A stretch of 64,000 nucleotides of DNA, taken from positions 26,213 through 90,212 of the forward strand of contig JACRIK010000027.1 in assembly GCA_016235865.1 (NCBI GenBank), read 5' to 3'. Positions 175 to 56,854 of this stretch are shown here, piece after piece. The notes under the pieces were generated by a model. The model was not told where the DNA came from and did not search any database. It saw nothing but the letters and a program-made list of their open reading frames with translations. A program made the position numbers and the translations under genes. The DNA is from Planctomycetota bacterium. Lineage in GTDB: Bacteria > Planctomycetota > MHYJ01 > JACQXL01. How positions within the stretch are numbered: position 1 is the first letter of the stretch; every line of letters begins with the position of its first letter.

Positions 175-319
175 AAGGGCATATTATCAGGAAATATTGG
201 AAAACCAAGTAAATAGAACGTAGTTTGGAGAAGTTCGTGGGACACGATTTATAATTTCTGAGCTATATTTTTCTTCAACCAATTGACTTGTATAGGGTTA
301 TTCTATTTCCGGCATAAAT

Positions 320-3136: not shown

Positions 3137-3347
3137 TGGTCAATTTTGCCACAGAGACACAGAGAACGCAGAGCGACTGCGGAGTAGATACGAAGCGAAC
3201 ACGGAGAAATGCAACCACGAATGGACACAAATAAACACGAAAGAGAACTCCGCAGAGACCGTGAAGCGAACACGAATGGCACGAATAGGAGCGAATTACA
3301 CGAATAATTATTAACCACAGATGAACACAGATGGGCGCGGATGATTT
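3137..3347. repeat. Intergenic spacer between convergent genes, built from reiterated octamer-like units (ccacagag, cgcagag, cacgaatg, ccacagat, acacagat): a REP-like repeat family
   Basis: Read directly. The same words and their reverse complements recur in other spacers (4020-4050, 13585-13656, 33590-33680, 34355-34425, 46480-46545, 55530-55620, 56740-56850). Confidence 0.5.
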
Positions 3348-30529: not shown

Positions 30530-30949
30530 TTATTTCTTGTCCTGCTTCGCCCCGTCTTCTTTCAGCTTTTCCTCTAAGTGGTCTTTAAGGCGTTCCATTC
30601 TTTCTAATGATTTTTTGATATCGGTCTTGCCCTGTTTTTCCAGGATGAAATAGAACGAGTGGTTGTCCACAAAAGGATAAGGGATAAGGAGCATCATAAT
30701 ATCAAGCGGAAAAATCTGGAATATCGGGGCGCTGACTGGGATGATGGATTTATAGGTCTGGTAGCCGTCTTTTTCCAGCAGCACTTCGCGCTTGCCGTAG
30801 AAGGTGAAAGGCACCGAAAGCGGCGTAATGCCTTTATCCTGTCCGTCCAGCGTGACCTTTGCGCCGGCCGGTTCTGAGGTAATCAGAATCCGGTGCTCGG
30901 CGCAACTCACCAGCAGGATTGATAGAATAATTAAACCAATTAATCGCAT
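30530..30949 (-). CDS. PEGA-domain lipoprotein, 139 aa
   Basis: Lipobox LLVSC, then ILITSEPAGAKVTLDGQDKGITP (PEGA motif). Confidence 0.55.
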   Translation of the reverse strand: MRLIGLIILSILLVSCAEHRILITSEPAGAKVTLDGQDKGITPLSVPFTFYGKREVLLEKDGYQTYKSIIPVSAPIFQIFPLDIMMLLIPYPFVDNHSFYFILEKQGKTDIKKSLERMERLKDHLEEKLKEDGAKQDKK

Positions 30950-33390
30950 TTTCTCATTAACTCCCCGATTTTCTTATAGTCAGGATAAAACTCCTCCGCT
31001 TTAATAAGGAGTTCCTTGGCCCGGGATTTATTGCTCAATTCTAAATAAATCTCCGCCTGAGAGCAATAAAAATCAGCCAATACCTTGTTGCGTTCGCCGG
31101 AGGTCGTCCTCATGGTCAGCCGGATGGCCATATCGTATTCCCGCAATGCGGCGTCAGGTTGTTTCTGGGCGCGGTATCCTTTGGCTAGGTAATTATGTAG
31201 CTGGATGCTCTCCGGTTCCAGATAGACCGCGTCTTGCAGGAGCGCTACCAGTTTATCGTACTGCTTCAGCGAAACGTAGTGTTTGGCCAGCTTCATCCGG
31301 TTGGTGAAATCCAAGTGATTAATCTTGATTAACTCCTCTATCTCGGCATACATCTGGTCTGTCTGTTTTTGTTCTTCATAAATGGAAATCAGGTAGTGGT
31401 AGGGGCTGAAACCCGCTTTGGCATAATGCGGAAAGTATTGCTTGGCCTTTATGAATTCGGCAATCGCCTCATTAGTCTTGTTGCGCTTGTATAACTCCCG
31501 GGCATTGTTGAACGTCTTCTCGAACTCCTTGAAATTGATGCCCTTGAGAAACTCATTGTTAAAATAGTCGAAGAACTCCTTATCAAATCCTTCCACGTTT
31601 TTATCCAGGCATTCCTTGAAAATCGTTTCGGTATCCTTACCCGCGCCCCAGCCTTTAAGCATCTTGATAATCGTTTCCATCCCGTATTTATGGTGGAGGT
31701 ATTCTATGATGACCGAACTCAGGTAATAAGAATGGGTTACGTCGGCGTCCCGGCGGTCCACGAAATCAGTCAGGTGTTTGAGCTTGTTCTCCGAGATGGC
31801 CTTGACTAGGTCGTCCTCAATCTCCTCGCCCCAGGCCGGGTTATAGAGTTTCTCGGCATAGACCGAGCAGCCCTCGGTGAACCAGCGCGGCACGCGGAAC
31901 CGGCTCATTTGCAGGGTGATGATGTGCATAAATTCGTGCACCGTAATAGAGCCCCAGTGGAAACGCTCGGCCATCTGTTCCTGGGCCTTGGGCGATAAAA
32001 CCAGGAAGGTTTGGGCAAAGCACACCCCGCGCGCCGCGATAAATCCCGGAAAGCCCATCAGCCGGACCGAGAAATCATTGTGGTTCGGAAAGGCCTCAAC
32101 CAGCAACGGCGTTATCGGCTTGTATTGATAGAGCGTGGTGAACTTATCATAGGCGTCCTCCAGCAACTCCGGCATATACGGCTCCAACAGGAAGCGCTCG
32201 TCCTTGTGCATCTTAATCTCAAAATCCCCGGTCTTGACTATCTCAAACTCATCCCGGAGCGCATCCAGGACCTTGAGCATATTGTGGACCTTGACGTTGA
32301 ACGGGTCGCGGGCAAAGGCCTCGCCCAATAATTTTCGGCCTTGCATTTCATAGTCTGGACCGAGGTGCATATAATTGAATCCGGTGGCAGTCCGGGCGTC
32401 CCAGAGATGCCCGTCCAGGGTCAGCGCCTTTTCATAGAATCCGGTTGCCTCCATATAAAACAGTCGCCGGTCTAAATTATCTCCGATAATCAGATAGAAC
32501 AACGCCGGATTCCTGTTCACCTCCAGGATTGCCCGGCATTCCTTGTCAAACTCCGGCATCTTGTTGGTGAGATAATAAATGCTGGCCCTGGTAGCCCGGT
32601 ATGAGACCGAATTAGGGTTAATGGACAGGGATTTATTAACGGTATCAAGCGCGTTGGAAAACTGCTCGTTCATCAATTGGACCGTAGCCAGGAGATTATA
32701 GGCTTCAGCCTGGACTGAAAGAAGGGGTAATACGGTTGATACGGTAGAGGATGTGGCTCCTGTTTTGTCGTCAGGCGGGGATGATAAACTCAGAGCCATA
32801 TTGATATTATAAAGATTCTTTTCCCGGTCCCAGATGGCAAAATAGGTCTTGGCCAGGCCGAGATATGCCTCGGCCGAAGACGGATTTGTCTTCGAAGTGT
32901 CGGTGAAGCACCCGGCCGCGGCCGGCAGGTCGCCCTTCTCCAGATAGCAATTGCCCCAGAACGTATAGAGCGCCGAGCGTAATGATGGTTCTGTTGCCGA
33001 TTTCTCTATCTGAGGCAGTAAATCACGTACCACCTTCTGGAAAATATCCTTATCGCCCTGGCGCGTGGCATACAGCCAGGTGCCCTGGGCCAGCCAGAGC
33101 AGTTCCTGGGGTTTGAGTTTAGATGATGCTGATTCGGTTATGGCCGGAAAATACTCCAGCAGTGTTTCTGCCTTCTGGTATTCTCCGGTCTCCAGATAGA
33201 GATGGCTCAGGACCAGGCGGGTGAAGAGGTTGTCAGGCAATCTGGTCAGGACTTTTTGAGCATCACTGATGGCTTTTCGGTATTCGCCCTTGATGGCTGA
33301 GGCAATGAAATCGTCAGTATCTTCTGCGTGAGAAAAGAGAGGATTCACCACAAAGGCACAAAGGACACAAAGAGGAAATAAGTATTTCAT
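30940..33390 (-). CDS. Secreted TPR-repeat protein with an HExxH (HEFMH) metallopeptidase-like motif, about 816 aa from the start MKYLFPL
   Basis: Signal-peptide-like N-terminus and multiple TPR-like helical repeats. The longer ORF to 33489 would run into the tRNA-Ser gene, so the internal start was chosen. Confidence 0.6.
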   Translation of the reverse strand: MKYLFPLCVLCAFVVNPLFSHAEDTDDFIASAIKGEYRKAISDAQKVLTRLPDNLFTRLVLSHLYLETGEYQKAETLLEYFPAITESASSKLKPQELLWLAQGTWLYATRQGDKDIFQKVVRDLLPQIEKSATEPSLRSALYTFWGNCYLEKGDLPAAAGCFTDTSKTNPSSAEAYLGLAKTYFAIWDREKNLYNINMALSLSSPPDDKTGATSSTVSTVLPLLSVQAEAYNLLATVQLMNEQFSNALDTVNKSLSINPNSVSYRATRASIYYLTNKMPEFDKECRAILEVNRNPALFYLIIGDNLDRRLFYMEATGFYEKALTLDGHLWDARTATGFNYMHLGPDYEMQGRKLLGEAFARDPFNVKVHNMLKVLDALRDEFEIVKTGDFEIKMHKDERFLLEPYMPELLEDAYDKFTTLYQYKPITPLLVEAFPNHNDFSVRLMGFPGFIAARGVCFAQTFLVLSPKAQEQMAERFHWGSITVHEFMHIITLQMSRFRVPRWFTEGCSVYAEKLYNPAWGEEIEDDLVKAISENKLKHLTDFVDRRDADVTHSYYLSSVIIEYLHHKYGMETIIKMLKGWGAGKDTETIFKECLDKNVEGFDKEFFDYFNNEFLKGINFKEFEKTFNNARELYKRNKTNEAIAEFIKAKQYFPHYAKAGFSPYHYLISIYEEQKQTDQMYAEIEELIKINHLDFTNRMKLAKHYVSLKQYDKLVALLQDAVYLEPESIQLHNYLAKGYRAQKQPDAALREYDMAIRLTMRTTSGERNKVLADFYCSQAEIYLELSNKSRAKELLIKAEEFYPDYKKIGELMRKCD

Positions 33391-33406
33391 TTGTCTGAAA
33401 ATAGAA

Positions 33407-33495
33407 CGGAGGGAGTGAGATTTGAACTCACGGTCCACCATAAGGCAGACACCCGCTTTCGAGGCGGGCCCTTTCAACCACTCAGGCATCCCTCC
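33407..33495 (-). tRNA. tRNA-Ser (anticodon CGA), 89 nt with a long variable arm
   Basis: Reverse complement GGAGGGATGCCTGAGTGGTTGAAAGGGCCCGCCTCGAAAGCGGG ... GTGAGTTCAAATCTCACTCCCTCCG. Acceptor GGAGGGA/TCCCTCC and anticodon loop CUCGAAA. Close to E. coli serU in layout. Confidence 0.85.
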
Positions 33496-33680
33496 GTGTT
33501 TAAGGCCGCCGCTTTTTAGAGCCAGTTAGACCTATGGTCGTTACTGGCTCTTATCCCGATTACTCATCGGGGCAACCACTCAGCAACCTCTCCGTAAGAA
33601 AATTAGCCACAGAGTCGCAGAGTTCACAGAGAGTAATTAACTCCGTGTTCTCCGTGCCTCTGTGGCTATTTATTAGTATA

Positions 33681-33754
33681 TACGCCCGACAGGAGTCGAA
33701 CCTGTAACCTTTTGATCCGTAATCAAAAGCTCTATCCAGTTGAGCTACGGGCGC
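33681..33754 (-). tRNA. tRNA-Arg (anticodon ACG), 74 nt
   Basis: Reverse complement GCGCCCGTAGCTCAACTGGATAGAGCTTTTGATTACGGATCAAAAGGTTACAGGTTCGACTCCTGTCGGGCGT. Anticodon loop UUACGGA and T-loop GGTTCGACTCC. Confidence 0.85.
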
Positions 33755-36151: not shown

Positions 36152-36410
36152 GCTTATCATACCAAGAAACGGCGCCTACGATACCAAGCAGTATGGTATA
36201 TAACTATCAGAACTGGGGTTTAGTTTACCAAGAAATAGGGCTTACCATACCAAGAAGAGGCGCTTTATTTACCAAAAAGATGGGCTTATCATACCAAGAA
36301 CAGGGGCTTTAGCTATCAAGCAGTATGGTATATAACTATCAGAACCGGGGCTTAAGTTACTAAGAAATATGGCTTATTATACCAAGAGTTAGGGCCTATA
36401 ATATCAATAA
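36152..36410. repeat. Tandem repeat array with 22-bp base period (units like ataccaagaaNNgggcNtta) organised as two roughly 132-bp higher-order copies. A G/C-run tract lies at 36411-36450
   Basis: gcttatcataccaagaa recurs at 36152 and 36284 (132 = 6 x 22). The array is followed by gggcggggggttagtctaatgggggtggggcacctcccccc. Confidence 0.8.
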
Positions 36411-47851: not shown

Positions 47852-48137
47852 GGCGCTACGGAGGTACGTTATCGGCGCTATGGAGGCACGTCACCGGCCC
47901 TACAGAGGTGCATTCCAGGCGCTACAGAGGTGCATTCCAGGCACTACAAAGGTATATTCCAAGCATTACGAAGGTATATTCCAAGCGCTACAAAGGTATT
48001 CTCCAGGCATTACGAAGGTATGCTTCCGGCGCTACGAAGGTATGCTTCTGGCGTTACAGAGGTATGCTCCAGGCGCTACAGAGGTATGCTTCCGGCGCTA
48101 CGGAGGCACGTCACCGGCGCTATCATCGGTGTATGCT
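47852..48137. repeat. Tandem array of about 13 copies of a 22-bp unit (ggcgctacagaggtatgcttcc and variants) immediately upstream of the Type III mod gene
   Basis: Exact 22-nt period across 47852-48137. The three overlapping ORF-track entries 47777..48151, 47817..48218 and 47908..48186 are reading-frame artefacts of the repeat. Confidence 0.9.
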
Positions 48138-48223: not shown

Positions 48224-49810
48224 ATGCCATCACTAAATTTTAAGGGTAAGAATGCAGTTTGGAATCATCATTTGTCCGTTCCATACCAGATACTGGAAAA
48301 GGATAAGAAGCTGTCACTCAAAGGCAAGAATGAGGATGAGAACCTGATTATAGAGGCGGATAATCTGGTCGCGCTAAAAAGCTTGTTACCGAAATATCAG
48401 GGCCGGATAAAGTGTATTTACATAGACCCGCCATATAATACCGGCAATGAAAATTGGGTTTATAGCGATAATGTCAGCAGTCCGTTAATAAAAGAATGGC
48501 TAAAAAAAGGGCCTGTTGGTTCTGAGGATTTAACCCGTCACGACAAATGGCTTTGTATGATGACGCCTCGCCTTAAACTTCTTCGTGAATTGATGAGTGA
48601 GGATGGTGTCATATTTGTTAGTATTAACGACATTGAGAGTTCTCATGTGCGTATGCTAATGGATGATATATTTAATGGTAATTTTATTGGTATGTTAATA
48701 TGGAGGAAAAAAGAGGGTGGAGGACAGACTGACGATTACTTTGTAACGGAACATGAGTATGTTCTTGCGTATGCTAAATCGCCAGATTTTAAATGGGTTG
48801 ATGAAACAATTCCGATAGATGAGGCAAAATTCAAGAAAGAAGATAATGACGGAAGATTTACTGCGGTTAAACTTGCTAAATGGGGTTCTGGAGCACGGAA
48901 AGAAGATCGGCCAACGATGCATTTTGCAATAAAATCTCCCGACGGTAAAAATGTGTATCCAAAAGCACCAGATGGGAGTGCTGGAAGGTGGCGCGTTGGG
49001 AAATTAACAATGGATAATCTTCTGGAAAATGGATTAGTCTACTGGGAGGAAAAAAATGGCGATTGGGTGGCCTACGAGAAAATCTATTATGACGAAGAAG
49101 ACGTTAAGACAATTAAAGAACGGAGCATACTATACGAATTAGCTTCTACTGGTGATGCCACGAAGGCGCTAACTGAGTTATTTGGGAAAAAGGATATATT
49201 TGAAAATCCTAAGCCAGTTGAACTTACTAAATTCTTAATGCGATATACCACTGATAAATCTTCAATTATTCTTGATTCCTTTGCTGGTTCGGGAACAACA
49301 GCCCAGGCGGTTTTAGAGTTAAATAAAGAAGATGGTAAGGAGGGGAATAGGAAAGTCATTTTAATTCAACTGCCAGAAGAAATTAGGAAAGATAAGCCAG
49401 CATATAAGGCTGGGTATAGATATGTTCACGAGATTACAAGAGAGCGCGTTAAACGAGTGATTGAAAGAGATAAATTGGGTGTTGGCTTTTCATACATGAA
49501 TCTTGGATCACAGATTGATGCGGATTCTATCTTATCAGGCAAGTTGCCAACCTATAAAGAGTTTGCCAAGTATGTTTATTATCTGGCAACCGGAAAGACA
49601 GGCAACGAGTCAATTTACCTTATATATGAAAAGGACAAGGACAAACTAAAGAAGCTGGCAATTACGCTTGAATGGGCAGAGCAGACAAACAAGAAAGACA
49701 AGGGCAAGAAGATTATCTATGCCCCGGCCTGTTTCATAGATGAAGAATACCTGGAGAAGTTTAATATCCATTTTGTGAGTATTCCTTATAATCTCTTTGA
49801 AAAGAAATAG
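48224..49810 (+). CDS. mod: Type III restriction-modification system methyltransferase (Mod), N6-adenine, beta-class, 528 aa
   Basis: Motif IV DPPYNTGN N-terminal to motif I DSFAGSGTT. Strong Shine-Dalgarno sequence aaggag. Followed 3 nt later by the res gene. Confidence 0.85.
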   Translation: MPSLNFKGKNAVWNHHLSVPYQILEKDKKLSLKGKNEDENLIIEADNLVALKSLLPKYQGRIKCIYIDPPYNTGNENWVYSDNVSSPLIKEWLKKGPVGSEDLTRHDKWLCMMTPRLKLLRELMSEDGVIFVSINDIESSHVRMLMDDIFNGNFIGMLIWRKKEGGGQTDDYFVTEHEYVLAYAKSPDFKWVDETIPIDEAKFKKEDNDGRFTAVKLAKWGSGARKEDRPTMHFAIKSPDGKNVYPKAPDGSAGRWRVGKLTMDNLLENGLVYWEEKNGDWVAYEKIYYDEEDVKTIKERSILYELASTGDATKALTELFGKKDIFENPKPVELTKFLMRYTTDKSSIILDSFAGSGTTAQAVLELNKEDGKEGNRKVILIQLPEEIRKDKPAYKAGYRYVHEITRERVKRVIERDKLGVGFSYMNLGSQIDADSILSGKLPTYKEFAKYVYYLATGKTGNESIYLIYEKDKDKLKKLAITLEWAEQTNKKDKGKKIIYAPACFIDEEYLEKFNIHFVSIPYNLFEKK

Positions 49811-49812
49811 AT

Positions 49813-52299
49813 ATGATTCTAAAGGATTATCAGATAGAGGTCATCGATAAACTAAAAGAGTTCTATACCGAGGCGGAAAAACAAAAGAGCGAGGTAGAGA
49901 AGTCAAATGATAAGGTTTTAAGAGAATCTGTTTCTTATGTTGATACTGTTTATACTAAGCTTGACCTGCATTTTGCCGACCGGCCTAAGAACGGCTTAGG
50001 ACAATCATATACCCGTTTTTGCCTGAAGATTCCGACCGGCGGGGGCAAGACCCTATTGGCAATTGAGGCCATCCGGGAATACCAAAACCTATTCGCCAAG
50101 AAAAGAACCGGGTTAGTGGTTTGGATAGCGCACCGCGAGACCATCTACCGCCAGACCATAGAGAAACTCAGGGATAAAAATCATATCTACCGCCAGTGGC
50201 TGGACCAATGCAGCGGCAACCGGACCATTATTCTGGAAAAAGGACAGCCGTTACGGATGCAGGACACGGACAGCAATCTGGTGATTCTGATGCTGATGAT
50301 TCAGTCGGCCGGAAAGAAAACCAAGGAAAATATGAAGGTCTTTCAGGACAGCGGCAAATATATTGACTTCTTCCCGCCGGATAACCAATACGAGGAGCAT
50401 GAAAAACTATTAAGGAGGGTCCCTAATCTTGATCCTACCCCTGGTGATGTATTCGGCAAGAGAATAATAAAGACCAGTTTAGGCAACATAATCAGGATGG
50501 AGAATCCGCTTATGATTGTGGATGAATTCCATACGATGTTTTCGGATATTGCCAAAAGCACGTTGGACGGCTTAAACCCATCAATGATAATCGGACTGTC
50601 GGCTACGCCCAAAAAACGGGAGGGCATGAATATTTTTATAGAAATTACGGGCAAGGCGCTTAAGGACGAGGAGATGATTAAATTAGATATGCACCTGCAT
50701 TCGCCGACTACCAGCGGAGATTGGCATGAAATGATTAACAGCGTCAGAAAGAAAAGGGAGACGTTGGAAAAGACAGCGACTGACTTTAACCGTAATAAGG
50801 GGATATATATCAGGCCGATAGCATTGATACAGGTAGAGCGAACGGGTAAAGACCAGAGGGGAAAAGAATTTGTGCACAGCGAGGATGTGCGCGAATATCT
50901 GGTTGCGCAAGGAGTTCCGGCTCATCAAATCGCGGTAAAATCAAGCGAAATGGATGAGATTAAAGAGGAAAAACTCTTATCGCAGACAAGCGAAATCAGA
51001 TACATCATTACCAAAGAGGCGTTAAAAGAGGGCTGGGATTGTTCATTTGCCTATGTTTTAGGGGTGATACCCAATGCCAGGTCTGAATCCTCAATGACCC
51101 AGTTGGTCGGCCGGATATTACGCCAGCCGTATGCCAAGAAGACCGGGGTGGCGGAATTGGATGAAAGTTATGTCTATTTTAACCAGGGCGATACGGAAGA
51201 TGTCCTGCATAACATCCAGCGCGGATTTGTAGAGGAGGGTTTGGGCGATTTGGTCCAGAATATCAGCCGGGAATCAGGCCCGACCGGCTCGGACAAGATA
51301 AAAACAAAGATTAAGAAAGATATTCTCAATAAATATCCTGAGTCGTTATATCTGCCGGTCTGGCTGGTTAAGGAAGATAACAAATACCGGCGGTTCTCTT
51401 ATGATATTGATATCAGGCCCAGGATTAACTGGCAAAACGGGCATTACGATAAATGGCTGGAAAAAGAAATCCTGCCTTTGCTTAGCGCGAAATCATCCGC
51501 TTATGAATATATAGTTGATTTGGACAATCGGCATGAAAGGCGGGATTTGGATGAGATGGATGAGGGCGTTTTTGATATTTCATACCTAACCCGCCGGATA
51601 TCCGATGTGGTTGATAATGCCTTTATTGCCTTTGACCTGGCTCAGGAATTTATCTCGGCCGGCGATAAATACAAAGACAGGCAAAAACTGCTAATCAACA
51701 GTGGATTCATTATCAAGGAAATCGTCAAGAAGTTGTCAGATGAAAAAATCCAGCAAGAGCAATTAATATTTGATTCATTACTGAAAGGCAAGGAATTAAT
51801 GCTGGCGGTCAGCGATGACGAGCAGGTCGGGTATTCGTTGCCGAAAAATAATGAGGTCTATCCGGAATATGCCGAGACATATAAACTGAATCTTTTTGAG
51901 AAGTCGGATATAAAATCAATGAATTCGCTGGAGCGGAGAATTGCCGGTTCTATTGATAATAAGAAAAATGTAATCTGGTGGGCGCGGAATATAGCCAGCA
52001 GCAGGAAATGGTATGCCATAAGAGGTTGGAAGAGAGGCAAAATCAGGCCTGATTTTATCGTGGCCAGGAAGAATAAAAGCGATGCGTTGGAACTCGTTTA
52101 TATCATTGAGAGCAAGGGCGAACATTTAATTGGCAATCCGGATACGATTTATAAAAAGAGCGTATTTGATAAGATGAATCAGGAAACCATTGAACAGGTA
52201 ACCCTGAAACTAATCAAGTTTAAGCTGAATAAGGACTTTAGGTTTGAACTGGTTGAGCAGGGACAGGAAGATATTGAGATAAACAGATTCTTTAATTAA
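49813..52299 (+). CDS. res: Type III restriction enzyme Res subunit (SF2 helicase domain plus C-terminal PD-(D/E)xK nuclease), 828 aa
   Basis: Motif I KIPTGGGKT, motif II MIVDEFH, helicase C-domain, and C-terminal RPDF ... ELVYIIESKGEH endonuclease motif. Confidence 0.85.
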   Translation: MILKDYQIEVIDKLKEFYTEAEKQKSEVEKSNDKVLRESVSYVDTVYTKLDLHFADRPKNGLGQSYTRFCLKIPTGGGKTLLAIEAIREYQNLFAKKRTGLVVWIAHRETIYRQTIEKLRDKNHIYRQWLDQCSGNRTIILEKGQPLRMQDTDSNLVILMLMIQSAGKKTKENMKVFQDSGKYIDFFPPDNQYEEHEKLLRRVPNLDPTPGDVFGKRIIKTSLGNIIRMENPLMIVDEFHTMFSDIAKSTLDGLNPSMIIGLSATPKKREGMNIFIEITGKALKDEEMIKLDMHLHSPTTSGDWHEMINSVRKKRETLEKTATDFNRNKGIYIRPIALIQVERTGKDQRGKEFVHSEDVREYLVAQGVPAHQIAVKSSEMDEIKEEKLLSQTSEIRYIITKEALKEGWDCSFAYVLGVIPNARSESSMTQLVGRILRQPYAKKTGVAELDESYVYFNQGDTEDVLHNIQRGFVEEGLGDLVQNISRESGPTGSDKIKTKIKKDILNKYPESLYLPVWLVKEDNKYRRFSYDIDIRPRINWQNGHYDKWLEKEILPLLSAKSSAYEYIVDLDNRHERRDLDEMDEGVFDISYLTRRISDVVDNAFIAFDLAQEFISAGDKYKDRQKLLINSGFIIKEIVKKLSDEKIQQEQLIFDSLLKGKELMLAVSDDEQVGYSLPKNNEVYPEYAETYKLNLFEKSDIKSMNSLERRIAGSIDNKKNVIWWARNIASSRKWYAIRGWKRGKIRPDFIVARKNKSDALELVYIIESKGEHLIGNPDTIYKKSVFDKMNQETIEQVTLKLIKFKLNKDFRFELVEQGQEDIEINRFFN

Positions 52300-52335
52300 T
52301 AGGGGGAATACCCCTCCTTTCTCTAATGTAAAACT

Positions 52336-54183
52336 ATGTATTTCACAAAGCCCGTTTTAGCGGTAATCAAAAGAGTTATAAAAGACCTGAAAACCCGGAC
52401 AGAACTTGATAACTTATTTGAATCGTATGGCTTTGATCCTAAAAAAGATTGTGATGTTGGCAATAAATTAAATCTGGCTGGTTCATATTTAGACCATCAA
52501 GATTGGAGTGATGGAACAACGGCACATAATTTATTGGAGCTTTTGACCGAAGTTCTTCTGGGCGAGAAAGAGTCAGATACCTATCGCTGGCCCCAGGTGG
52601 AATTAATGCTTAACGCGCTAATTAAAGACAGCTATTACTGGATTAATAAGAATAAGAAATTTATCAGACAAGGTGAGCCATTTCCGCAACCCGCATTAAA
52701 TAAACCTGTTGAGCAAAAGCCTTCTGCGGAGAAGACGCCAGCTATTTTACCAGAAAATACCGGGGAGATAGCAGGAAAATACGTTAAAGAGATTCTTGAT
52801 AGGGAAAGAAATAATTTATTGTTTATAAGCAAATTCCTGGTTGATATAAAGCCCTTCTGGAATGACTGGCAATCATTTAAAGTAAAACTTCTTACAGTAC
52901 TTAACAATGAGAAAAAACGGATTATTATTAACGGGCAGGTTATCTTAGAGGTAAGTCCGATTGACTCTAAGGAAAAGCCCATTCTCCTTGAAATAGATAA
53001 TTTTTTCCAGGGCATTACTTTCCGCTATCCTTTTGCTGAATTAGAAGGATTCCTTAAAAACCTTATGACCGGCAAGGTGGTTGCTCAGGGAGAAGAATAT
53101 CATTTTGTGAACACCTCTCTTGGGCCATACGGTCCGGTTTGGGTGAACTACGCATATGATTACCCCGCACCAGTGAGCATGATAGAATCATTGAGCGGTA
53201 AAACAGCGTTTGCCATAGATTACAACGGAGATAAACTCTCAAACATTCTTGATAATACCAAAATTAAATGGCAGGACTTTTACCGGACTTGTCGGGGAAA
53301 AGGTTATAATGACCCATCTTACTTATTTAGATTATTCTTCGGATTAAGGGATGCTTATGTTACCAACGATTACCAGACCCAAATATGGATATATGCACCA
53401 ATTGATGTTTATATCAAGGAGTTTAAACCGCTTAAAAATAAATTGTCGGCCGTTATCTGGGCTGGCCCGTTAATAAAGCCGGATAATGTTGCATTGCGAT
53501 TTGTTCCCAGTAGGGAATCCCTTCCAGAACAAAGACCGGAATTTAAGCTGTCTGATTTTTCGCCACAAGGCAATTGTTTGTACCAGAAAGATATCCCAGC
53601 TGATTTTGATCAAACAGCTTTTATTGATTTAACCTATAAGGAAAAATTATTTTCAAAGGAACTTGAAATGCCGACATCTTCCGAAGATAAGCCCATTACT
53701 TTATCTATGGCAAAGAAATCAAAGATAGGCGCTAAAAATACTACAATTATTCATATGCCTAAAGGAACTAAGCCCAATGATATTACTTTTAGATTTAAAG
53801 ACCGCCGAACGATGGATGTTTTACTAAAAGATAATACCTTTAAGAGTAATGTATCATTTGATGAACTTGGATTTCAAAAGCAAAGCACCGGCAAAAAGAA
53901 GAAATCAGAACCAAGTATGCTATGGGAATTATTGGTAACGATGAGTGTAAATTATTCTAACCCGGGTTGGTCTTTTAAGGACAAGTCCACTAAAGGAAGG
54001 CAGCAGATAAGTTTACTTAGGGACAAACTTAAAACATTGCTAAATATAGAAGACGACCCCATTCCACTTAATTCTGAATTAAGAGGTTATCGCCCGGAAA
54101 TTCGTCTTGAGCCGCCACCAGATGAGCGACATCATTCCTATATAAATCCTGACGAAAAAGAGTCTGATTTGGAAGACGAGTAA
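52336..54183 (+). CDS. Hypothetical protein, 615 aa, no recognisable domain. Co-oriented immediately downstream of res within the AT-rich island
   Basis: Long ORF with AT-rich codon usage like mod and res. No Walker, nuclease or transmembrane motifs recognised by eye. Acidic, Lys-rich C-terminus. Confidence 0.6.
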   Translation: MYFTKPVLAVIKRVIKDLKTRTELDNLFESYGFDPKKDCDVGNKLNLAGSYLDHQDWSDGTTAHNLLELLTEVLLGEKESDTYRWPQVELMLNALIKDSYYWINKNKKFIRQGEPFPQPALNKPVEQKPSAEKTPAILPENTGEIAGKYVKEILDRERNNLLFISKFLVDIKPFWNDWQSFKVKLLTVLNNEKKRIIINGQVILEVSPIDSKEKPILLEIDNFFQGITFRYPFAELEGFLKNLMTGKVVAQGEEYHFVNTSLGPYGPVWVNYAYDYPAPVSMIESLSGKTAFAIDYNGDKLSNILDNTKIKWQDFYRTCRGKGYNDPSYLFRLFFGLRDAYVTNDYQTQIWIYAPIDVYIKEFKPLKNKLSAVIWAGPLIKPDNVALRFVPSRESLPEQRPEFKLSDFSPQGNCLYQKDIPADFDQTAFIDLTYKEKLFSKELEMPTSSEDKPITLSMAKKSKIGAKNTTIIHMPKGTKPNDITFRFKDRRTMDVLLKDNTFKSNVSFDELGFQKQSTGKKKKSEPSMLWELLVTMSVNYSNPGWSFKDKSTKGRQQISLLRDKLKTLLNIEDDPIPLNSELRGYRPEIRLEPPPDERHHSYINPDEKESDLEDE

Positions 54184-54487
54184 GACTGGTTGTGAAATCA
54201 ACCCTCTGGATTTCACATAATTCACAACAATTCCAATAATTCTTGAAAAATCTCGCTATCTAACATCTTTAAACTATTGAAGTTGTAGCAAGTAGTTTAA
54301 CCGCTAAAAGATTACCCCTTGTTTTTTGCCTATTTCACGGCCTAATTATAGAGGCACACGTTCGGGACGTCACCGGAAGCGGATGCGTGATGTCATCCAA
54401 TCCCGTCCGGACTTGTCTTCTATGAGTATCTGCTTGATGCCTGTTTGGCAGTTAGTCATATAAATAACAAAATAGGTGGGAACGACT

Positions 54488-54571
54488 ATGAAAAAGAGTT
54501 TTTGGAGGCGCATCATCAGGACGGTTATTGAAATCGTGCTTACGGTGATTCGTGACAAGATGAAGAAGTAA
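54488..54571 (+). CDS. Candidate small membrane-active peptide ORF (27 aa: MKKSFWRRIIRTVIEIVLTVIRDKMKK), type I toxin-like
   Basis: Shine-Dalgarno-like aggtggg 7 nt upstream of the ATG. Hydrophobic helix core flanked by basic residues. A 62-aa antisense ORF (54370..54558) overlaps it. Below the ORF-track length cutoff. Confidence 0.3.
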   Translation: MKKSFWRRIIRTVIEIVLTVIRDKMKK

Positions 54572-54677
54572 CTTCGCTTGTTTCCCGGTTTGGCGGGTTA
54601 TCCGGAAACGGATAGCCCCCGGCCGGGCTCCAAAAAGAAGGTGGCGCCAAAGGCGTCATTTAAGAAAGGATTAAATT

Positions 54678-55472
54678 ATGGGTACTATCAGTGAAGTGAA
54701 ACTGGCGGTTCTGCTGGGTATAGCAGAGGCCGGAGAGGTCCAGGTGGAGCGCTGGAAACGGGGCACCAAGAATAACGCTGACCTGACCTACCAGCAAATG
54801 CAACAGGCAATCGGCAACGAGTCCGATTATAAGTCCAAACTGGCTCTGCCGGCGGCCACGGCCTACGCGCCGGCGATGAATCCGGCTTTCGTGTCTCGCT
54901 CAGGTCTGGACCGGAACCGGATTGTCCGCAAGCAGGCGGATAACATCAACCAGGGCTACAATAATTACGCCGCTTCTCTGGCCCAGGCGTTTGAGACCGT
55001 GGATGGCGAACCGGCCAAGCGCTATAAGGAGGCGATTGACGCCTCAGCCGAGAATTACAGCCAGAAGGCGGCCCGGAACGTTCTGCCCTTTACCGGGTCG
55101 CGCGAACTGGGACTGGGCATCGCGCCCATCGCTTCAAGGTGGCTGACCGGCGATATTACGACTGAACGGCTGCTCAGGGGCGATGACCAAATCGGCCTGG
55201 GCGGGCCAATCAACGTGGCCCGGGTGACGCCGGATATGCGGACGGCCCTGAAGGCGGCCATCACCAACCGGATAGTCCAGTCAGGCAAGGTGCTGATTAG
55301 CGCGGATTGGGACCCGGCCGTAATGGTCCAGGAGAACGACCATATCAATAACCTGATTGCCTCTTTGCAGGACGCGGCTTATGTGGCTTTTGCCACGGCC
55401 GGGGTCTCGCATTGCGATTGGATTGTGATAGACGGCCGGAAATACCTGGAGATAAAGGTGGCAACAGTGTAG
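54678..55472 (+). CDS. Hypothetical protein, 264 aa, GC-rich, possibly phage-structural-like
   Basis: ORF whose GC content is visibly higher than the adjacent RM island. No motif recognised. Confidence 0.5.
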   Translation: MGTISEVKLAVLLGIAEAGEVQVERWKRGTKNNADLTYQQMQQAIGNESDYKSKLALPAATAYAPAMNPAFVSRSGLDRNRIVRKQADNINQGYNNYAASLAQAFETVDGEPAKRYKEAIDASAENYSQKAARNVLPFTGSRELGLGIAPIASRWLTGDITTERLLRGDDQIGLGGPINVARVTPDMRTALKAAITNRIVQSGKVLISADWDPAVMVQENDHINNLIASLQDAAYVAFATAGVSHCDWIVIDGRKYLEIKVATV

Positions 55473-55633
55473 GAAATGCGGAATGCGGGGTGCGGAATTA
55501 ACCGTGCCCCGCTTCCCTTTAATTAAAACAAAATACGAACACGAATGGGACGAATAGGAACGAATGGTACGAATGAATATTATTCGTGTGATTTATCTTA
55601 ATTCGTGTGATTCGTGTTAAAAGGAGTTGATTT

Positions 55634-56728
55634 ATGTCATTAAAACCAAATGAGGTAAAAACCAGTAACATCGCGACCTATGCGGTCACGACATCAAAGA
55701 TTGCCAAGAGCGCGATAACCACCGATAAGATAGCCGACGGCGCTATTACCAGCGCTAAGTTGCAGGAGGATTGCGTCACTACTAATAAGATAAGTGATAT
55801 GGCAATCACCAATGATAAGATTGCGGATAGGACGATTACCCAGGATAAACTGGTACTGCCGATAATTCCGCCATCGCCGATTACCAGGCCGATTTCGCCG
55901 CAGGTGGAGAGCGCTGAAATCAAGGACGGGGCGATTGTCCGGGCCAAGATTGCCGTCAATGCGGTGGAGAGCGATAATATCAAGGACCTGAATGTCACCA
56001 GCGGGAAACTGGCGTCCAGCGCGGTGACCAACGCCAAGATTGCGGATAACGCAATAACCGCATCTAAGATTGCATCTAATGCTGTGGGTTCGAGCGAGAT
56101 TGCGGCTAACGCAGTTGGGACGAGTGAGATTGCTAACGGCGCCGTGACGCCTGAGAAACTGTCGTTTGTGCCGGGCGGAGCGGTGAGACCGTTAACACCG
56201 CCGGTTACTACAGCAGAAATCGGTGATGGACAAGTGACCGGGCCGAAGATTGCATCTTCGGCAGTAGGCAGTAGTCAGTTGGCAGTAGACAGTGTAATAA
56301 CTGAGAAAATCCTGAATGGCGCGGTTACTGCTGAGAAGTTAGCGCCCGGCGTGGGCGGAGGCGATACCCTGACCATGTTCCCAACGCCACAGACCGCGCT
56401 GGACCAGGGCGGCATCACGGCCACGACCGTACCGGCCACGGTTGACCTTTCCGCAATTATCCCGGTCGGCACCAAGGGCGTGATTGTCTCAATCGCCTGT
56501 ATCACCCAGAGTTATACGGATGGCGGGATGATGGCGTACGTCTTCAGGCAACTGGGCGCGGAATATGCCCTGCAGGTCGGAGCTCCGCCGGTTAATGCGC
56601 CGGGGATTAGTAACGGTGGCTCAGTCCTGATGCCGGTGGCGGCTGATAGGACGTTGCTTTGGCAAGCCTATGTATCAGGAAACAACTCAACCGAGCTGGT
56701 AATCTACATTTTAGGTTATGTTGTATAG
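55634..56728 (+). CDS. Repeat protein, 364 aa: about 20 tandem 11-residue repeats (consensus x-K-I-A-x-x-A-V/I-T-x-x) followed by a Gly/Ala-rich globular C-terminal domain. Phage tail-fiber-like architecture
   Basis: Repeats read directly (KIAKSAITTD, KIADGAITSA, KIADNAITAS, KIASNAVGSS ...). No signal peptide. Confidence 0.6.
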   Translation: MSLKPNEVKTSNIATYAVTTSKIAKSAITTDKIADGAITSAKLQEDCVTTNKISDMAITNDKIADRTITQDKLVLPIIPPSPITRPISPQVESAEIKDGAIVRAKIAVNAVESDNIKDLNVTSGKLASSAVTNAKIADNAITASKIASNAVGSSEIAANAVGTSEIANGAVTPEKLSFVPGGAVRPLTPPVTTAEIGDGQVTGPKIASSAVGSSQLAVDSVITEKILNGAVTAEKLAPGVGGGDTLTMFPTPQTALDQGGITATTVPATVDLSAIIPVGTKGVIVSIACITQSYTDGGMMAYVFRQLGAEYALQVGAPPVNAPGISNGGSVLMPVAADRTLLWQAYVSGNNSTELVIYILGYVV

Positions 56729-56854
56729 GGGTTAGAGGTTAAGAATTGGGACGCAGATTTCGCTGATTTACGCAGATAAATCCTGATAATCTGTAAAATC
56801 TGCGTTTATCTGCGTTCTATTTCTCGGTCTCTGCGGAGTTTATCTGTGGTTACC
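56729..56854. terminator. Convergent-gene spacer composed of cgcagat/atctgcg and atctgtgg octamer units forming nested hairpins (acgcagataaatcctgataatctgtaaaatctgcgt). Candidate bidirectional terminator
   Basis: Inverted repeats read directly. Same unit family as 3137-3347. Confidence 0.4.

Follow-up and report, generated by a model that had tools for sequence, protein, structure and literature searches.

The fibre of adenovirus, P5 of PRD1 and BclA of the Bacillus exosporium each use a short N-terminal tail to dock on a base protein. The tail leads into a repetitive shaft, made of 15-residue beta-spiral or collagen GXX repeats, and the shaft into a jelly-roll or TNF-like knob; the base proteins are the penton base, P31 and ExsFA/BxpB, respectively. 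Fibres with knobbed tips are also carried as chromosomal genes by Bdellovibrio bacteriovorus, whose MAT (mosaic adhesive trimer) fibres include Bd2133 (PDB 8OK3/8OND, Caulton et al. 2024, PMC10769870). MAT fibres are typically ~1000 aa long and have a conserved predicted N-terminal domain, their solved tips carry beta-helix domains, and full-length Bd2133 was expressed from residue 21, suggesting a cleaved leader (PMC10769870). The authors of that work propose "tip swapping", together with a conserved N-terminal part that would bind an unidentified element of the cell surface (PMC10769870). Phage fibres provide a further point of comparison, and those of Legionella phage LME-1 are trimeric (PMC12407071).

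Here we describe a cassette from a 64,000-nucleotide stretch of Planctomycetota DNA (the window) in which the gene for a fibre (ORF2) follows that for a partner protein (ORF1). The two co-directional genes lie where the first-pass annotation had placed them (Table 1), and sequence conservation points to a third, previously unnoticed cassette gene upstream, for a peptide of 27 aa. The cassette is one copy of a multi-copy chromosomal family specific to a clade of uncultivated Planctomycetota; the metagenome-assembled genomes (MAGs) that bear it are labelled Planctomycetota or Candidatus Brocadiia, and some come from groundwater. We propose, with somewhat less than even confidence, that it encodes a cellular or domesticated adhesin system made of an adaptor and a fibre. 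Of the two ideas first offered for this locus, a phage or tailocin remnant and a novel surface structure, the second is the closer to this reading.

Table 1. Positions of the cassette features and of the neighbouring restriction-modification genes in the window
Feature	Position	Strand	Description
Type III R-M Mod	48224-49810		AT-rich island
Type III R-M Res	49813-52299		AT-rich island
Conserved 5' non-coding stretch	54410..54487	+	Probable promoter/leader; ends in AGGTGG Shine-Dalgarno for small peptide gene
Sigma-70-like site	54445-54473		TTGGCA-17-CAAAAT; consensus match only
Small ORF (candidate third gene)	54488..54571	+	27 aa, MKKSFWRRIIRTVIEIVLTVIRDKMKK; predicted basic amphipathic helix
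ORF1	54678-55472	+	264 aa; putative partner protein of the fibre
GC-rich hairpin	55485..55512	+	11 pairs, 9 G-C; then T-rich tail; right after ORF1 stop; terminator- or attenuator-like in sequence
Repeat arrays	55536..55620	.	ACGAAT units, then inverted ATTCGT units
ORF2	55634-56728	+	364 aa; predicted knobbed fibre
Shaft	55658..56362	+	Residues 9-243; 19 full and 2 half decapeptide units
Apparent recombination breakpoint in fibre gene	56160..56165	.	Near residue 176; nucleotide homology to L002 ends
Tip (predicted knob) domain	56363..56725	+	Residues 244-364; all-beta sandwich
3' intergenic spacer	56729..56854	.	ACGCAGAT / ATCTGCGT inverted short repeats; right cassette boundary

Directly upstream of the module lies the AT-rich island recognised earlier (GC 0.38-0.44), which holds a Type III restriction-modification (R-M) system and a 615-aa gene of no assigned function. 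The window neighbours of the cassette are this R-M system, LpxK, ThiE, DapB, an ABC transporter and CTP synthase. Against the foreign island the module does contrast as "visibly GC-rich", but its GC lies inside the host's own range: ORF1 has a GC of 0.59 and a GC3 of 0.725 and ORF2 has 0.54 and 0.605, compared with 0.49-0.56 and 0.56-0.76 for core genes, and the top 800-bp segment outside the module reaches a GC of 0.588. The cassette is compositionally native in GC, GC3 and codon composition. Its flanks, first described as octamer-repeat spacers, do contain short repeats, but with periods of 7-10 bp plus inverted copies, and these are not specific to the module, similar short-period arrays being present in many intergenic regions of the window. 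The arrays between ORF1 and ORF2 are a generic intergenic repeat element of the host genome, and a similar element lies at window 3246-3313. Beyond the 3' spacer is a convergent gene for an ABC-transporter permease.

The fibre-like architecture ascribed to ORF2 proved correct, in that its PHROG matches, phage records and knob tip are those of a phage-type fibre. An 8-residue N-terminal tail is followed by a decapeptide shaft in three blocks (residues 9-73, 93-177 and 194-243) and by a beta-sandwich tip. The consensus unit of the shaft is T-x-x-K-I-A-x-x-A-V, and the blocks are joined by the Pro-rich linkers VLPIIPPSPITRPISPQVE (74-92) and FVPGGAVRPLTPPVTT (178-193). The initial count of about 20 tandem repeats of K-I-A..A-V-T type stands, with the correction that their period is 10 residues and not 11: lag-10 identity is 0.298 versus 0.081 +/- 0.017 in 2000 shuffles (z = 12.5), and lag-11 identity is 0.047, under the shuffle mean as measured for lag 10. 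The shaft matches phrog_892, annotated "tail fiber protein", at E 1.5e-43; ORF2 matches a further 17 PHROGs, nine of them in the tail category. A tblastn search with ORF2 yielded 97 phage records below 60% identity; identity is 35-41% in the best-listed ones, and most of the 97 carry the annotation tail fibre or host-specificity protein J. Among the matches listed, the alignments end no further than about residue 283, save for one two-piece match reaching 316, and the tip is therefore essentially uncovered by them. Among PDB sequences the shaft matches 9eg4_H (E 0.005); 9EG4 is the capsid model of LME-1, and we infer that chain H is the head decoration protein of that phage.

Searches of ORF2, whose repeats begin at residue 9, returned no Pfam or NCBIfam domain and no N-terminal domain for attachment to a virion tail, baseplate or adaptor. 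PF03906, which we take to be the N-terminal domain of the T7 tail fibre, is present in other proteins found by the same search and absent from ORF2. The fibre family as a whole is 280-430 aa in length, with 8-20 residues before the shaft. Inspection by eye revealed no signal peptide in ORF1 or ORF2 and no hydrophobic N-terminus in ORF2.

The C-terminal domain of ORF2, correctly called Gly-rich at the outset, is a globular unit of ~120 aa with 11% Gly that ends in the family-wide ...LGYVV C-terminus. The best structural match to its model is the Bd2133 fibre tip, followed by XepA and TNF-like folds, with ExsFA, PRD1 P5, BclA and C1q lower in the list. The tip is thus predicted to be a beta-sandwich knob, a type found at the end of trimeric fibres. 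A single-sequence scan of IMG/VR, sensitive to close relatives only, returned no tip and matched the shaft alone.

At least six tip sequence classes occur in the fibre family, and comparison among cassettes indicates that knobs have been swapped by recombination inside the fibre gene. ORF1 identity correlates with identity over the first 45 residues of the fibre (Spearman 0.74, with a nominal p of 1.6e-12 for pairs that share loci and are not independent) and not with tip identity (Spearman -0.13). The tip in the window is 88% identical to that of locus L009, the two ORF1s being 29% identical; in L002, the closest full cassette, ORF1 is 87% identical and the tip 28%. Nucleotide identity to L002 (blastn, 82.9%) is confined to 54407-56160, ending within the shaft. 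The fibre is accordingly a mosaic by its nearest relatives, which are P0060/P0063 for residues 1-185, P0046/P0047 for residues 186-244 and P0051/P0053 for residues 245-364. A diversity-generating retroelement (DGR) had also been suggested to target the tip; the window holds no template-like repeat or second copy of the tip, and no reverse transcriptase was seen among its annotated ORFs at the PHROG and Pfam level.

ORF1 indeed lacks a recognised motif, having no match in Pfam, NCBIfam, PHROGs or PADLOC. No relatives were found in PDB, BFVD, Pfam, PHROGs, IMG/VR or INPHARED, and a profile search of PDB with the ORF1 alignment gave nothing below E 0.17. The confident structural model is alpha-rich, has a strand at the N-terminus and a beta-hairpin at the C-terminus, and predicts a novel fold that matched nothing searched. 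The fold search ruled out an HK97-fold capsid or encapsulin shell protein, and found no fold in common with penton base, P31 or ExsFA. A catalytic Ser-His-Asp in the conserved "SHxD" motif of ORF1 is unlikely because His245 is replaced by Lys in two members.

The association of ORF1 with a fibre depends on how widely its family is drawn. Within the clade of the window, ORF1 is followed by the fibre gene at 9 of the 10 loci that are informative; across the wider family a fibre is detectable at 10 of 43 such loci, and ORF1 therefore has a role independent of the fibre. Trypsin_2 proteases with N-terminal hydrophobic signals occupy position -1 or -2 at 16 of 45 distant ORF1 loci, two protease-ORF1 fusions occur among the distant relatives, and genes for ECF sigma factors and zf-HC2 anti-sigma factors lie near them. 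These signal-anchored proteases and sigma/anti-sigma neighbours suggest that the cell envelope may be where the ORF1 platform works.

The case for the small peptide gene comes from its conservation and its placement. The L002 copy of the peptide is 92.6% identical, with mostly synonymous nucleotide changes, and tblastn searches with just the peptide detect relatives on the same strand, upstream of ORF1-family genes, at L010, L078, L017, L018, L024/L023 and L081. Every match to a peptide HMM lies 110-314 nt upstream of an ORF1-family gene, with none elsewhere in 21,514 six-frame segments; the L081 match overlaps the called start of the ORF1-family gene. The non-coding stretch before the peptide gene, probably a promoter or leader, is roughly at least 95% identical to L002 as judged by eye, versus 83% across the homologous region as a whole. 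A sigma-54 promoter upstream of ORF1 was considered and rejected, its -24/-12 spacing being a misfit by eye. At L007, a sigma-54 activator gene adjoins the cassette. Hairpins analogous to the one after ORF1 in the window, likewise GC-rich, follow ORF1 in L007, L011, L017, L094 and L095 (by eye).

Related cassettes are numerous. At L001, L002, L006, L007, L009, L011, L012, L013, L017, L018 and L019, an ORF1-like gene has an ORF2-like gene downstream. When four paralogous fibres were looked up independently, three (P0062, P0081 and P0050) had an ORF1-family gene immediately upstream and one, the distant paralogous fibre P0083 at L093, did not. One MAG contains six ORF1 loci, fibre paralogs reach 9, 4 and 3 in single MAGs, and divergent ORF1 types (~30% mutual identity) coexist in one genome. 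The cassette is kept across relatives down to ~30% ORF1 identity, with intact frames in dozens of loci, and ORF1, the fibre N-terminal part and shaft, and the tip are all under purifying selection (dN/dS 0.13-0.21). One copy, L016, is truly decayed: its ORF1 stands alone, and the C-terminus of a tip follows it out of frame. The first-pass annotation had regarded conservation of the pair in relatives as speaking against its proposal; such conservation is found, at the level of the cassette and not of the same chromosomal position.

Compared with MAT fibres, the present family is likewise chromosomal and multi-copy, with interchangeable C-terminal tips and a tip fold in common with the solved tip of Bd2133. 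It differs in the shorter length of its members, in having only a few residues and no signal peptide ahead of the shaft where MAT fibres have a conserved domain, and in a shaft of decapeptide repeats in place of beta-helix domains (PMC10769870). It differs further in its dedicated ORF1, in the frequent 27-aa peptide gene and in host phylum. With phage fibres (phrog_892, T7-like cyanophage fibre-like proteins and, as inferred, the head decoration protein of LME-1) it shares a homologous shaft repeat and the general layout. Unlike them, it lacks an attachment domain such as the N-terminal domain of T7 gp17 and a surrounding phage genome, and its partner ORF1 is absent from phage collections. The likeness to adenovirus, PRD1 and BclA fibres is one of analogy only, and extends from the short tail, repetitive shaft and knob to the separate base protein, for which the genetically linked ORF1 is the putative counterpart; the decapeptide repeat sets the shaft apart.

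If the cassette is an adhesin system, its fibre would be a trimer whose short N-terminal tail docks on the cognate ORF1 as base or adaptor, much as in the pairs of adenovirus fibre with penton base, P5 with P31 and BclA with the basal layer of the exosporium. Binding between ORF1 and fibre is suggested by gene adjacency and co-variation; the co-variation could also arise if adjacent DNA is inherited together and recombination is limited to the 3' half of the fibre gene. The hairpin after ORF1 would lead to more ORF1 than fibre. Swappable knobs would supply a cell or a released particle with a repertoire of binding specificities, possibly for glycans or for the surfaces of other cells or particles, and this repertoire may be a functional analogue of that of the Bdellovibrio MAT fibres. 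With no secretion signal seen by eye, a surface location would need an unrecognised export route or cell lysis. Assembly in the cytoplasm is what phage-like particles do, which weighs against a surface adhesin, as does the position of cassettes beside defence genes in several genomes, which fits other readings.

The first of these readings takes the cassettes for accessory modules that provide fibres to a domesticated phage-like particle (a tailocin, gene transfer agent (GTA), eCIS or unrecognised type), the main structural genes of which would be located elsewhere in the genome. The role of ORF1 would then be to link every fibre type to one shared baseplate, vertex or capsid, and the repertoire would set the target range. 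The shaft repeats are common to real virion fibres, namely, in many phages, tail fibres and protein J, and apparently occur in the capsid-projecting head decoration protein of LME-1, which by accession order is encoded beside the major capsid protein. Absence of a signal peptide from both proteins is what cytoplasmic assembly predicts, and the terminator-like hairpin fits a ratio of major to minor structural subunits. The head spikes and tail fibres of RcGTA are encoded at loci apart from its main cluster, which also counts in favour. However, no sheath, tube, baseplate, portal, capsid or terminase gene was found in the 64-kb window, in the flanking DNA covered at related loci or among the recurrent neighbours of ~90 such loci, those neighbours including no phage structural genes. 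The earlier report of no capsid, terminase or integrase holds, and in PHROG scans the other window ORFs of at least 150 aa are also devoid of tail or lysis matches. Phage collections yielded neither a sequence nor a fold relative for ORF1, coexistence of divergent ORF1 types in one genome is unexpected if all dock to one common particle, and what recurs beside ORF1 across its wider family is a secreted or anchored protease and an ECF sigma factor instead of virion genes. We regard a particle module as unlikely, if still a serious contender.

A bolder and distinctly unlikely proposal is that ORF1, the 27-aa peptide and the fibre form an undescribed extracellular or envelope-associated apparatus that captures cells, particles or polymers, with a base of new fold and exchangeable phage-derived knobbed fibres and without classical secretion signals; or that ORF1 is a non-HK97 shell or filament, released and decorated with fibres.

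That the cassette is an anti-phage or competition device of defence islands is less probable again. The fibre would work by masking or mimicking a receptor, or by binding incoming phage or competing cells, and ORF1 and the small peptide would serve as effector or helper. There is a precedent in StfE2, a cryptic-prophage fibre protein that blocks T2 adsorption (bioRxiv 10.1101/2025.03.28.646004), and an arms race would select tip swapping. Cassettes lie directly beside Type III R-M systems in the window, L002 and L095, and these three systems are not orthologous (orthology was rejected at 32% identity for Mod and 26% for Res); toxin-antitoxin, HEPN/MNT and restriction-endonuclease genes neighbour the cassettes of L006 and L007. 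The adjacency to R-M may reflect no more than a shared location in variable regions, and many cassettes, such as L001, L009 and L094, lie away from defence genes. ORF1 has no PADLOC match, and that of ORF2 is a weak one to PD-Lambda-5_A (E 9.5e-8 over 80 residues). PD-Lambda-5 is a compact R-M+Abi system (PMC9519451), and we rejected the link to ORF2 as an artefact at the level of the repeats. A masking role, moreover, requires export, for which no signal was seen.

That the cassette is an inert leftover from a decayed prophage or tailocin, the other idea first offered, is highly improbable: the fibre-like architecture, the lack of other phage genes nearby and the adjacent foreign island would suit it, but purifying selection on ORF1, shaft and tip, frames intact in dozens of loci, native codon composition, retention of a recurrent pair in several copies per genome down to distant relatives, and the look of true decay in L016 all stand against it. 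A conserved multi-copy pair with exchanged tips is therefore not a dead prophage remnant, and by these sequence criteria the cassette appears to be working and conserved. For annotation, the caution follows that a "tail fiber" match beside an AT-rich island should not be taken as evidence for a prophage.

Should the adhesin reading be true, bacteria beyond Bdellovibrio would maintain, among their ordinary chromosomal genes, large repertoires of phage-derived knobbed fibres that recombine, and here each fibre would be accompanied by a dedicated partner of unmatched fold and by a very small peptide. Such fibres would thereby gain a candidate docking partner; in Bdellovibrio, the surface element that holds them is still unidentified (PMC10769870). 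The compact, modular arrangement of tail, shaft, knob and cognate base would be open to biochemical testing, and it may hint at how little-known Planctomycetota, some of them from groundwater, attach to cells or particles.

Both ORFs called in the first-pass annotation, ORF1 and the fibre gene ORF2, were present exactly where they had been placed (table), but the phage or tailocin remnant proposed there does not hold. The two genes form a conserved cassette that exists in multiple copies, not a remnant: it recurs in many loci and in several copies per genome, and dN/dS is 0.15-0.21 for ORF1, 0.14 for the N-part of the fibre and 0.15 for its tip. Of the loci retrieved with ORF1 homologues, those named in the table have an ORF2-like gene on the same strand, 60-1600 bp downstream of ORF1; at L006 and L013 it sits behind a second ORF1 paralog. 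A fibre is carried by 9 of the 10 informative loci in the window's own clade, defined by ORF1 identity of at least 45%. An ORF1-family gene was also found immediately upstream of three of four independently looked-up paralogous fibres (P0062, P0081 and P0050; hhalign E 5e-38, hmmsearch 3e-99 and 1e-78), with none immediately upstream of the distant fibre P0083. Six ORF1 loci occur in the single MAG JACQXL01 (groundwater, 0.1-um size fraction), and single MAGs hold 9, 4 and 3 fibre paralogs. In one clade the second ORF1 paralog, 22-28% identical as measured for the L006 and L013 copies, is directly upstream of the fibre, giving tandem ORF1 genes.

Features of the window, of the fibre protein and of related loci
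Feature	Position	Strand	Remarks
ORF1	54678-55472	+	264 aa; good Shine-Dalgarno (SD)
ORF2 (fibre)	55634-56728	+	364 aa; good SD
27-codon ORF (MKKSFWRRIIRTVIEIVLTVIRDKMKK)	54488-54571	+	own SD; precedes ORF1
Strong hairpin	55485-55512		after ORF1
Mod, Type III restriction-modification (R-M)	48224-49810		PADLOC MTase_III, E 9e-117
Res, Type III R-M	49813-52299		PADLOC REase_III, E 9e-141
Uncharacterised 615-aa gene	52336-54183		inside AT-rich stretch
Short-period direct and inverted repeat arrays	3246-3313, 55536-55620; also 4103, 13599, 45101, 46482		intergenic
Long tandem arrays, 22-bp period	400-667, 36160-36387, 47852-48122		intergenic; about 12 copies
tRNA-Ser (cga)	33406-33496		
tRNA-Arg	33681-33754		after tRNA-Ser (cga)
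ORF2 shaft blocks	residues 9-73, 93-177, 194-243		joined by Pro-rich linkers VLPIIPPSPITRPISPQVE and FVPGGAVRPLTPPVTT
ORF2 globular domain			120 residues, directly after shaft
ORF2-like gene downstream of ORF1	L001, L002, L007, L009, L011, L012, L017, L018, L019, L026, L029, L078, L079, L083		
Second ORF1 paralog	L006 11437-12456, L013 11304-12329, L029 2759-3685		longer (308-341 aa)
Trypsin_2 proteases	L021 623-2455, L022 4053-5678, L009 6065-6832, 13 other loci		upstream of or fused to ORF1-family domain

The surroundings of the cassettes are cellular genes that differ between loci. In the window, the AT-rich stretch upstream (GC 0.38-0.44) carries a complete Type III R-M system and the 615-aa gene (48224-54183). 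Residues 459-592 of the 615-aa protein, in its C-terminal part, weakly match a protein family (L048; E 3e-9) whose genes recur at other loci, two or three positions upstream of ORF1. The chromosomal genes LpxK, ThiE and DapB lie to the left of this island, and an ABC transporter, CTP synthase and a PHP-domain protein to the right of the cassette; other window genes encode ribonucleotide reductase, dCMP deaminase, a Ser/Thr kinase and further ABC transporters. PHROG scans of the other window ORFs of at least 150 aa gave no match to phage head, tail, connector, terminase, integrase or lysis families, in agreement with the earlier remark that no capsid, terminase or integrase accompanies the pair. 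The GC-rich appearance ascribed to the module reflects mainly its contrast with the R-M island: GC3 is 0.725 for ORF1 and 0.605 for ORF2, within the core-gene range of 0.56-0.76, and windows of equal GC occur elsewhere. It is the island that is foreign; the module has a native composition. The flanks do contain repeat arrays, as described, but rather than octamer spacers these are units of 7-10 bp with inverted copies that recur in many intergenic regions of the window, and they seem to be a REP-like feature of the whole genome and not something peculiar to the cassette. The 22-bp arrays show 44/66-bp super-periods and units that differ from site to site, the third lying just upstream of the Type III mod gene. 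The tRNA-Ser overlaps the 5' end of a mechanically called minus-strand ORF (30940-33489), whose start was probably called too far upstream.

The repeat period of ORF2 is 10 residues and not 11 as first read. Identity at lag 10 is 0.298, against 0.081 +/- 0.017 for shuffles (z = 12.5), with 0.26 at lag 20, 0.27 at lag 30 and 0.047 at lag 11. The unit is T-x-x-K-I-A-x-x-A-V, and the count of 19 full and 2 half units bears out the earlier estimate of about 20. The shaft matches 18 PHROG families, half of them (9/18) in the tail category (phrog_892, E 1.5e-43), and 97 phage genomes, all at less than 60% identity and at 35-41% in the best-listed records. These phages include T7-like cyanophages, Gordonia phages, Lactobacillus LP65 and Marinitoga phages, and the matching proteins mostly bear the annotation tail fibre or host specificity protein J. 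In a PDB search, the sole solved chain carrying the decapeptide repeat was chain H of 9EG4, a capsid model of the Legionella podophage LME-1. We infer that this chain is that phage's head decoration protein, a capsid-projecting trimer, whose gene, judged by accession order, appears to adjoin that of the major capsid protein. By analogy, ORF2 probably trimerises.

With one exception, the listed phage matches extend no further than about residue 283, and the tip is essentially left uncovered. A model of the tip (residues 225-364, from an alignment of 28 tips) is all-beta, with pLDDT 87.4 and pTM 0.79. Its fold list is headed by the tip of the Bdellovibrio fibre Bd2133, followed by PBSX XepA (8.0), TNF-family 4-1BBL (7.7), Ena spore appendages and satellite-virus jelly rolls, with ExsFA (7.2) and BclA, C1q and PRD1 P5 (about 6) lower. 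Bd2133 belongs to the mosaic adhesive trimer (MAT) fibres, several of which were shown on the predator's surface and for which tip swapping was proposed (PMC10769870). The shaft matches, to tail-fibre PHROGs and phage fibres, and the predicted beta knob together identify ORF2 as a knobbed fibre with a phage-type shaft, as its first description as fibre-like had anticipated. Among listed fibre hits, 70 of 120 end in G-[YW]-[IVF]-x and fall into at least six tip sequence classes within a single superfamily; some cassette fibres, such as P0068 and P0071, end outside this pattern.

The fibre is modular in the manner of receptor-binding proteins. Across 12 cassettes, the more alike two ORF1 proteins are, the more alike are residues 1-45 of their fibres (Spearman 0.74, with a nominal p of 1.6e-12 from pairs that are not independent); tip identity shows no such correlation with ORF1 identity (Spearman -0.13). 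The fibre N-terminal types (MSLKPNEVKT..., MSLKPLEVKT...ATKAVT..., MARILYDRLNEIKT... and MTYRRTYF...) each pair with their own ORF1 subfamily where the partner is known, and ORF1 behaves like a cognate partner for the very short tail at the fibre's N-terminus. Tips, in turn, move freely between cassettes. The window and L009 have tips 88% identical and ORF1 only 29% identical (83% and 29% for L011 and L017). L002, the closest full cassette to that of the window, has a tip of another class (28% identity), although its ORF1 is 87% and its fibre N-terminus 89% identical. DNA homology to L002 spans 54407 to 56160, ending within the fibre gene near residue 176, and the nearest relatives change along the fibre (P0060/P0063 for residues 1-185, P0046/P0047 for 186-244, P0051/P0053 for 245-364). 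Crossover could plausibly occur at the shaft-tip junction ...EKLAPGVGGGD..., which several tip classes share.

As the first reading had it, ORF1 lacks a recognised motif: Pfam, NCBIfam, PHROGs, PADLOC and a profile search of the PDB gave no match. Its AlphaFold model, from 31 homologues, is confident (pLDDT 90.7, pTM 0.74), with an N-terminal strand, about 13 helices and a C-terminal beta-hairpin; an HK97 capsid protein was rejected by fold search. The family is small: it forms 41 clusters at 90% identity, in which all members with a taxonomic name come from Planctomycetota MAGs. When 1.84 billion proteins were searched with a profile, 267 representatives at 50% identity emerged. ORF1 was not found in IMG/VR or among 50,697 phage genomes. 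The 27-aa peptide encoded ahead of ORF1 is basic and amphipathic. At least 8 loci have it upstream of an ORF1-family gene, conserved at the protein level and spanning several subfamilies (L010, L017, L018, L023/L024, L078, L081), and the L002 copy differs mostly by synonymous changes. Every match of a peptide HMM lay 110-314 nt upstream of an ORF1-family gene (at L081 overlapping the called start), with no other among 21,514 six-frame segments. By eye, the 5' leader (54410-54487) differs less between the window and L002 than ORF1 does, and hairpins equivalent to the window's own follow ORF1 in other cassettes; the hairpin suggests that ORF1 is produced in excess over the fibre. These observations establish peptide, ORF1 and fibre as a functional three-gene cassette.

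On the simplest mechanism, ORF1 would be the base or adaptor on which the trimeric fibre docks, and the knob would supply variable binding specificity. Such a layout would be analogous to adenovirus fibre on penton base, PRD1 P5 on P31 and BclA on the exosporium basal layer, and in population logic the set of cassettes resembles the Bdellovibrio MAT repertoire. Our leading reading, held tentatively at somewhat under an even chance, is a cellular or domesticated adaptor-fibre adhesin. Less probably, the cassette is an accessory to a phage-like particle whose genes are located elsewhere. No signal peptides were seen by eye, which favours cytoplasmic assembly and hence a released particle. In the wider ORF1 family, a secreted protease, neighbouring ECF sigma genes and protease fusions speak for an envelope location. 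The recurrent neighbours differ in distant subfamilies, where 16 of 45 informative loci have a Trypsin_2 protease that carries an N-terminal signal or anchor. A small Cys-rich, zinc-ribbon-like protein often comes before the protease, and a divergent ECF sigma factor with a zf-HC2/DUF2582 anti-sigma is often nearby. Anchor, protease and ORF1 domain are fused in P0175 and P0183; protease, ORF1 and fibre co-occur in four loci (L009, L019, L078, L083), and the window's own subfamily has the protease in 0 of 8 loci. Many ORF1 loci in the wider family carry no fibre. A defence or competition device seems improbable. Cassettes often adjoin defence genes, namely toxin-antitoxin, HEPN/MNT or restriction-endonuclease-domain genes and, for three cassettes (window, L002, L095), Type III R-M systems that are non-orthologous. 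L006 has a small tyrosine recombinase (208 aa, Phage_integrase) upstream, and L012 a related 240-aa ORF. An inert remnant is scarcely credible. One copy, at L016 (5776-6671), is indeed decayed and illustrates how decay appears in this family: a lone intact ORF1-like gene is followed by an out-of-frame tip end, '...VIGYIEYD'. The remaining probability falls to something outside these readings.

Full-text literature searches, not aimed at ORF1 itself, found no description of the cassette. The fibre alone is of known kinds, a phage-type shaft with a Bd2133/TNF-like knob. What sets the cassette apart is a dedicated partner of unmatched fold with a conserved micro-peptide, and the combination of several orthogonal partner/N-terminus types per genome with free tip exchange.
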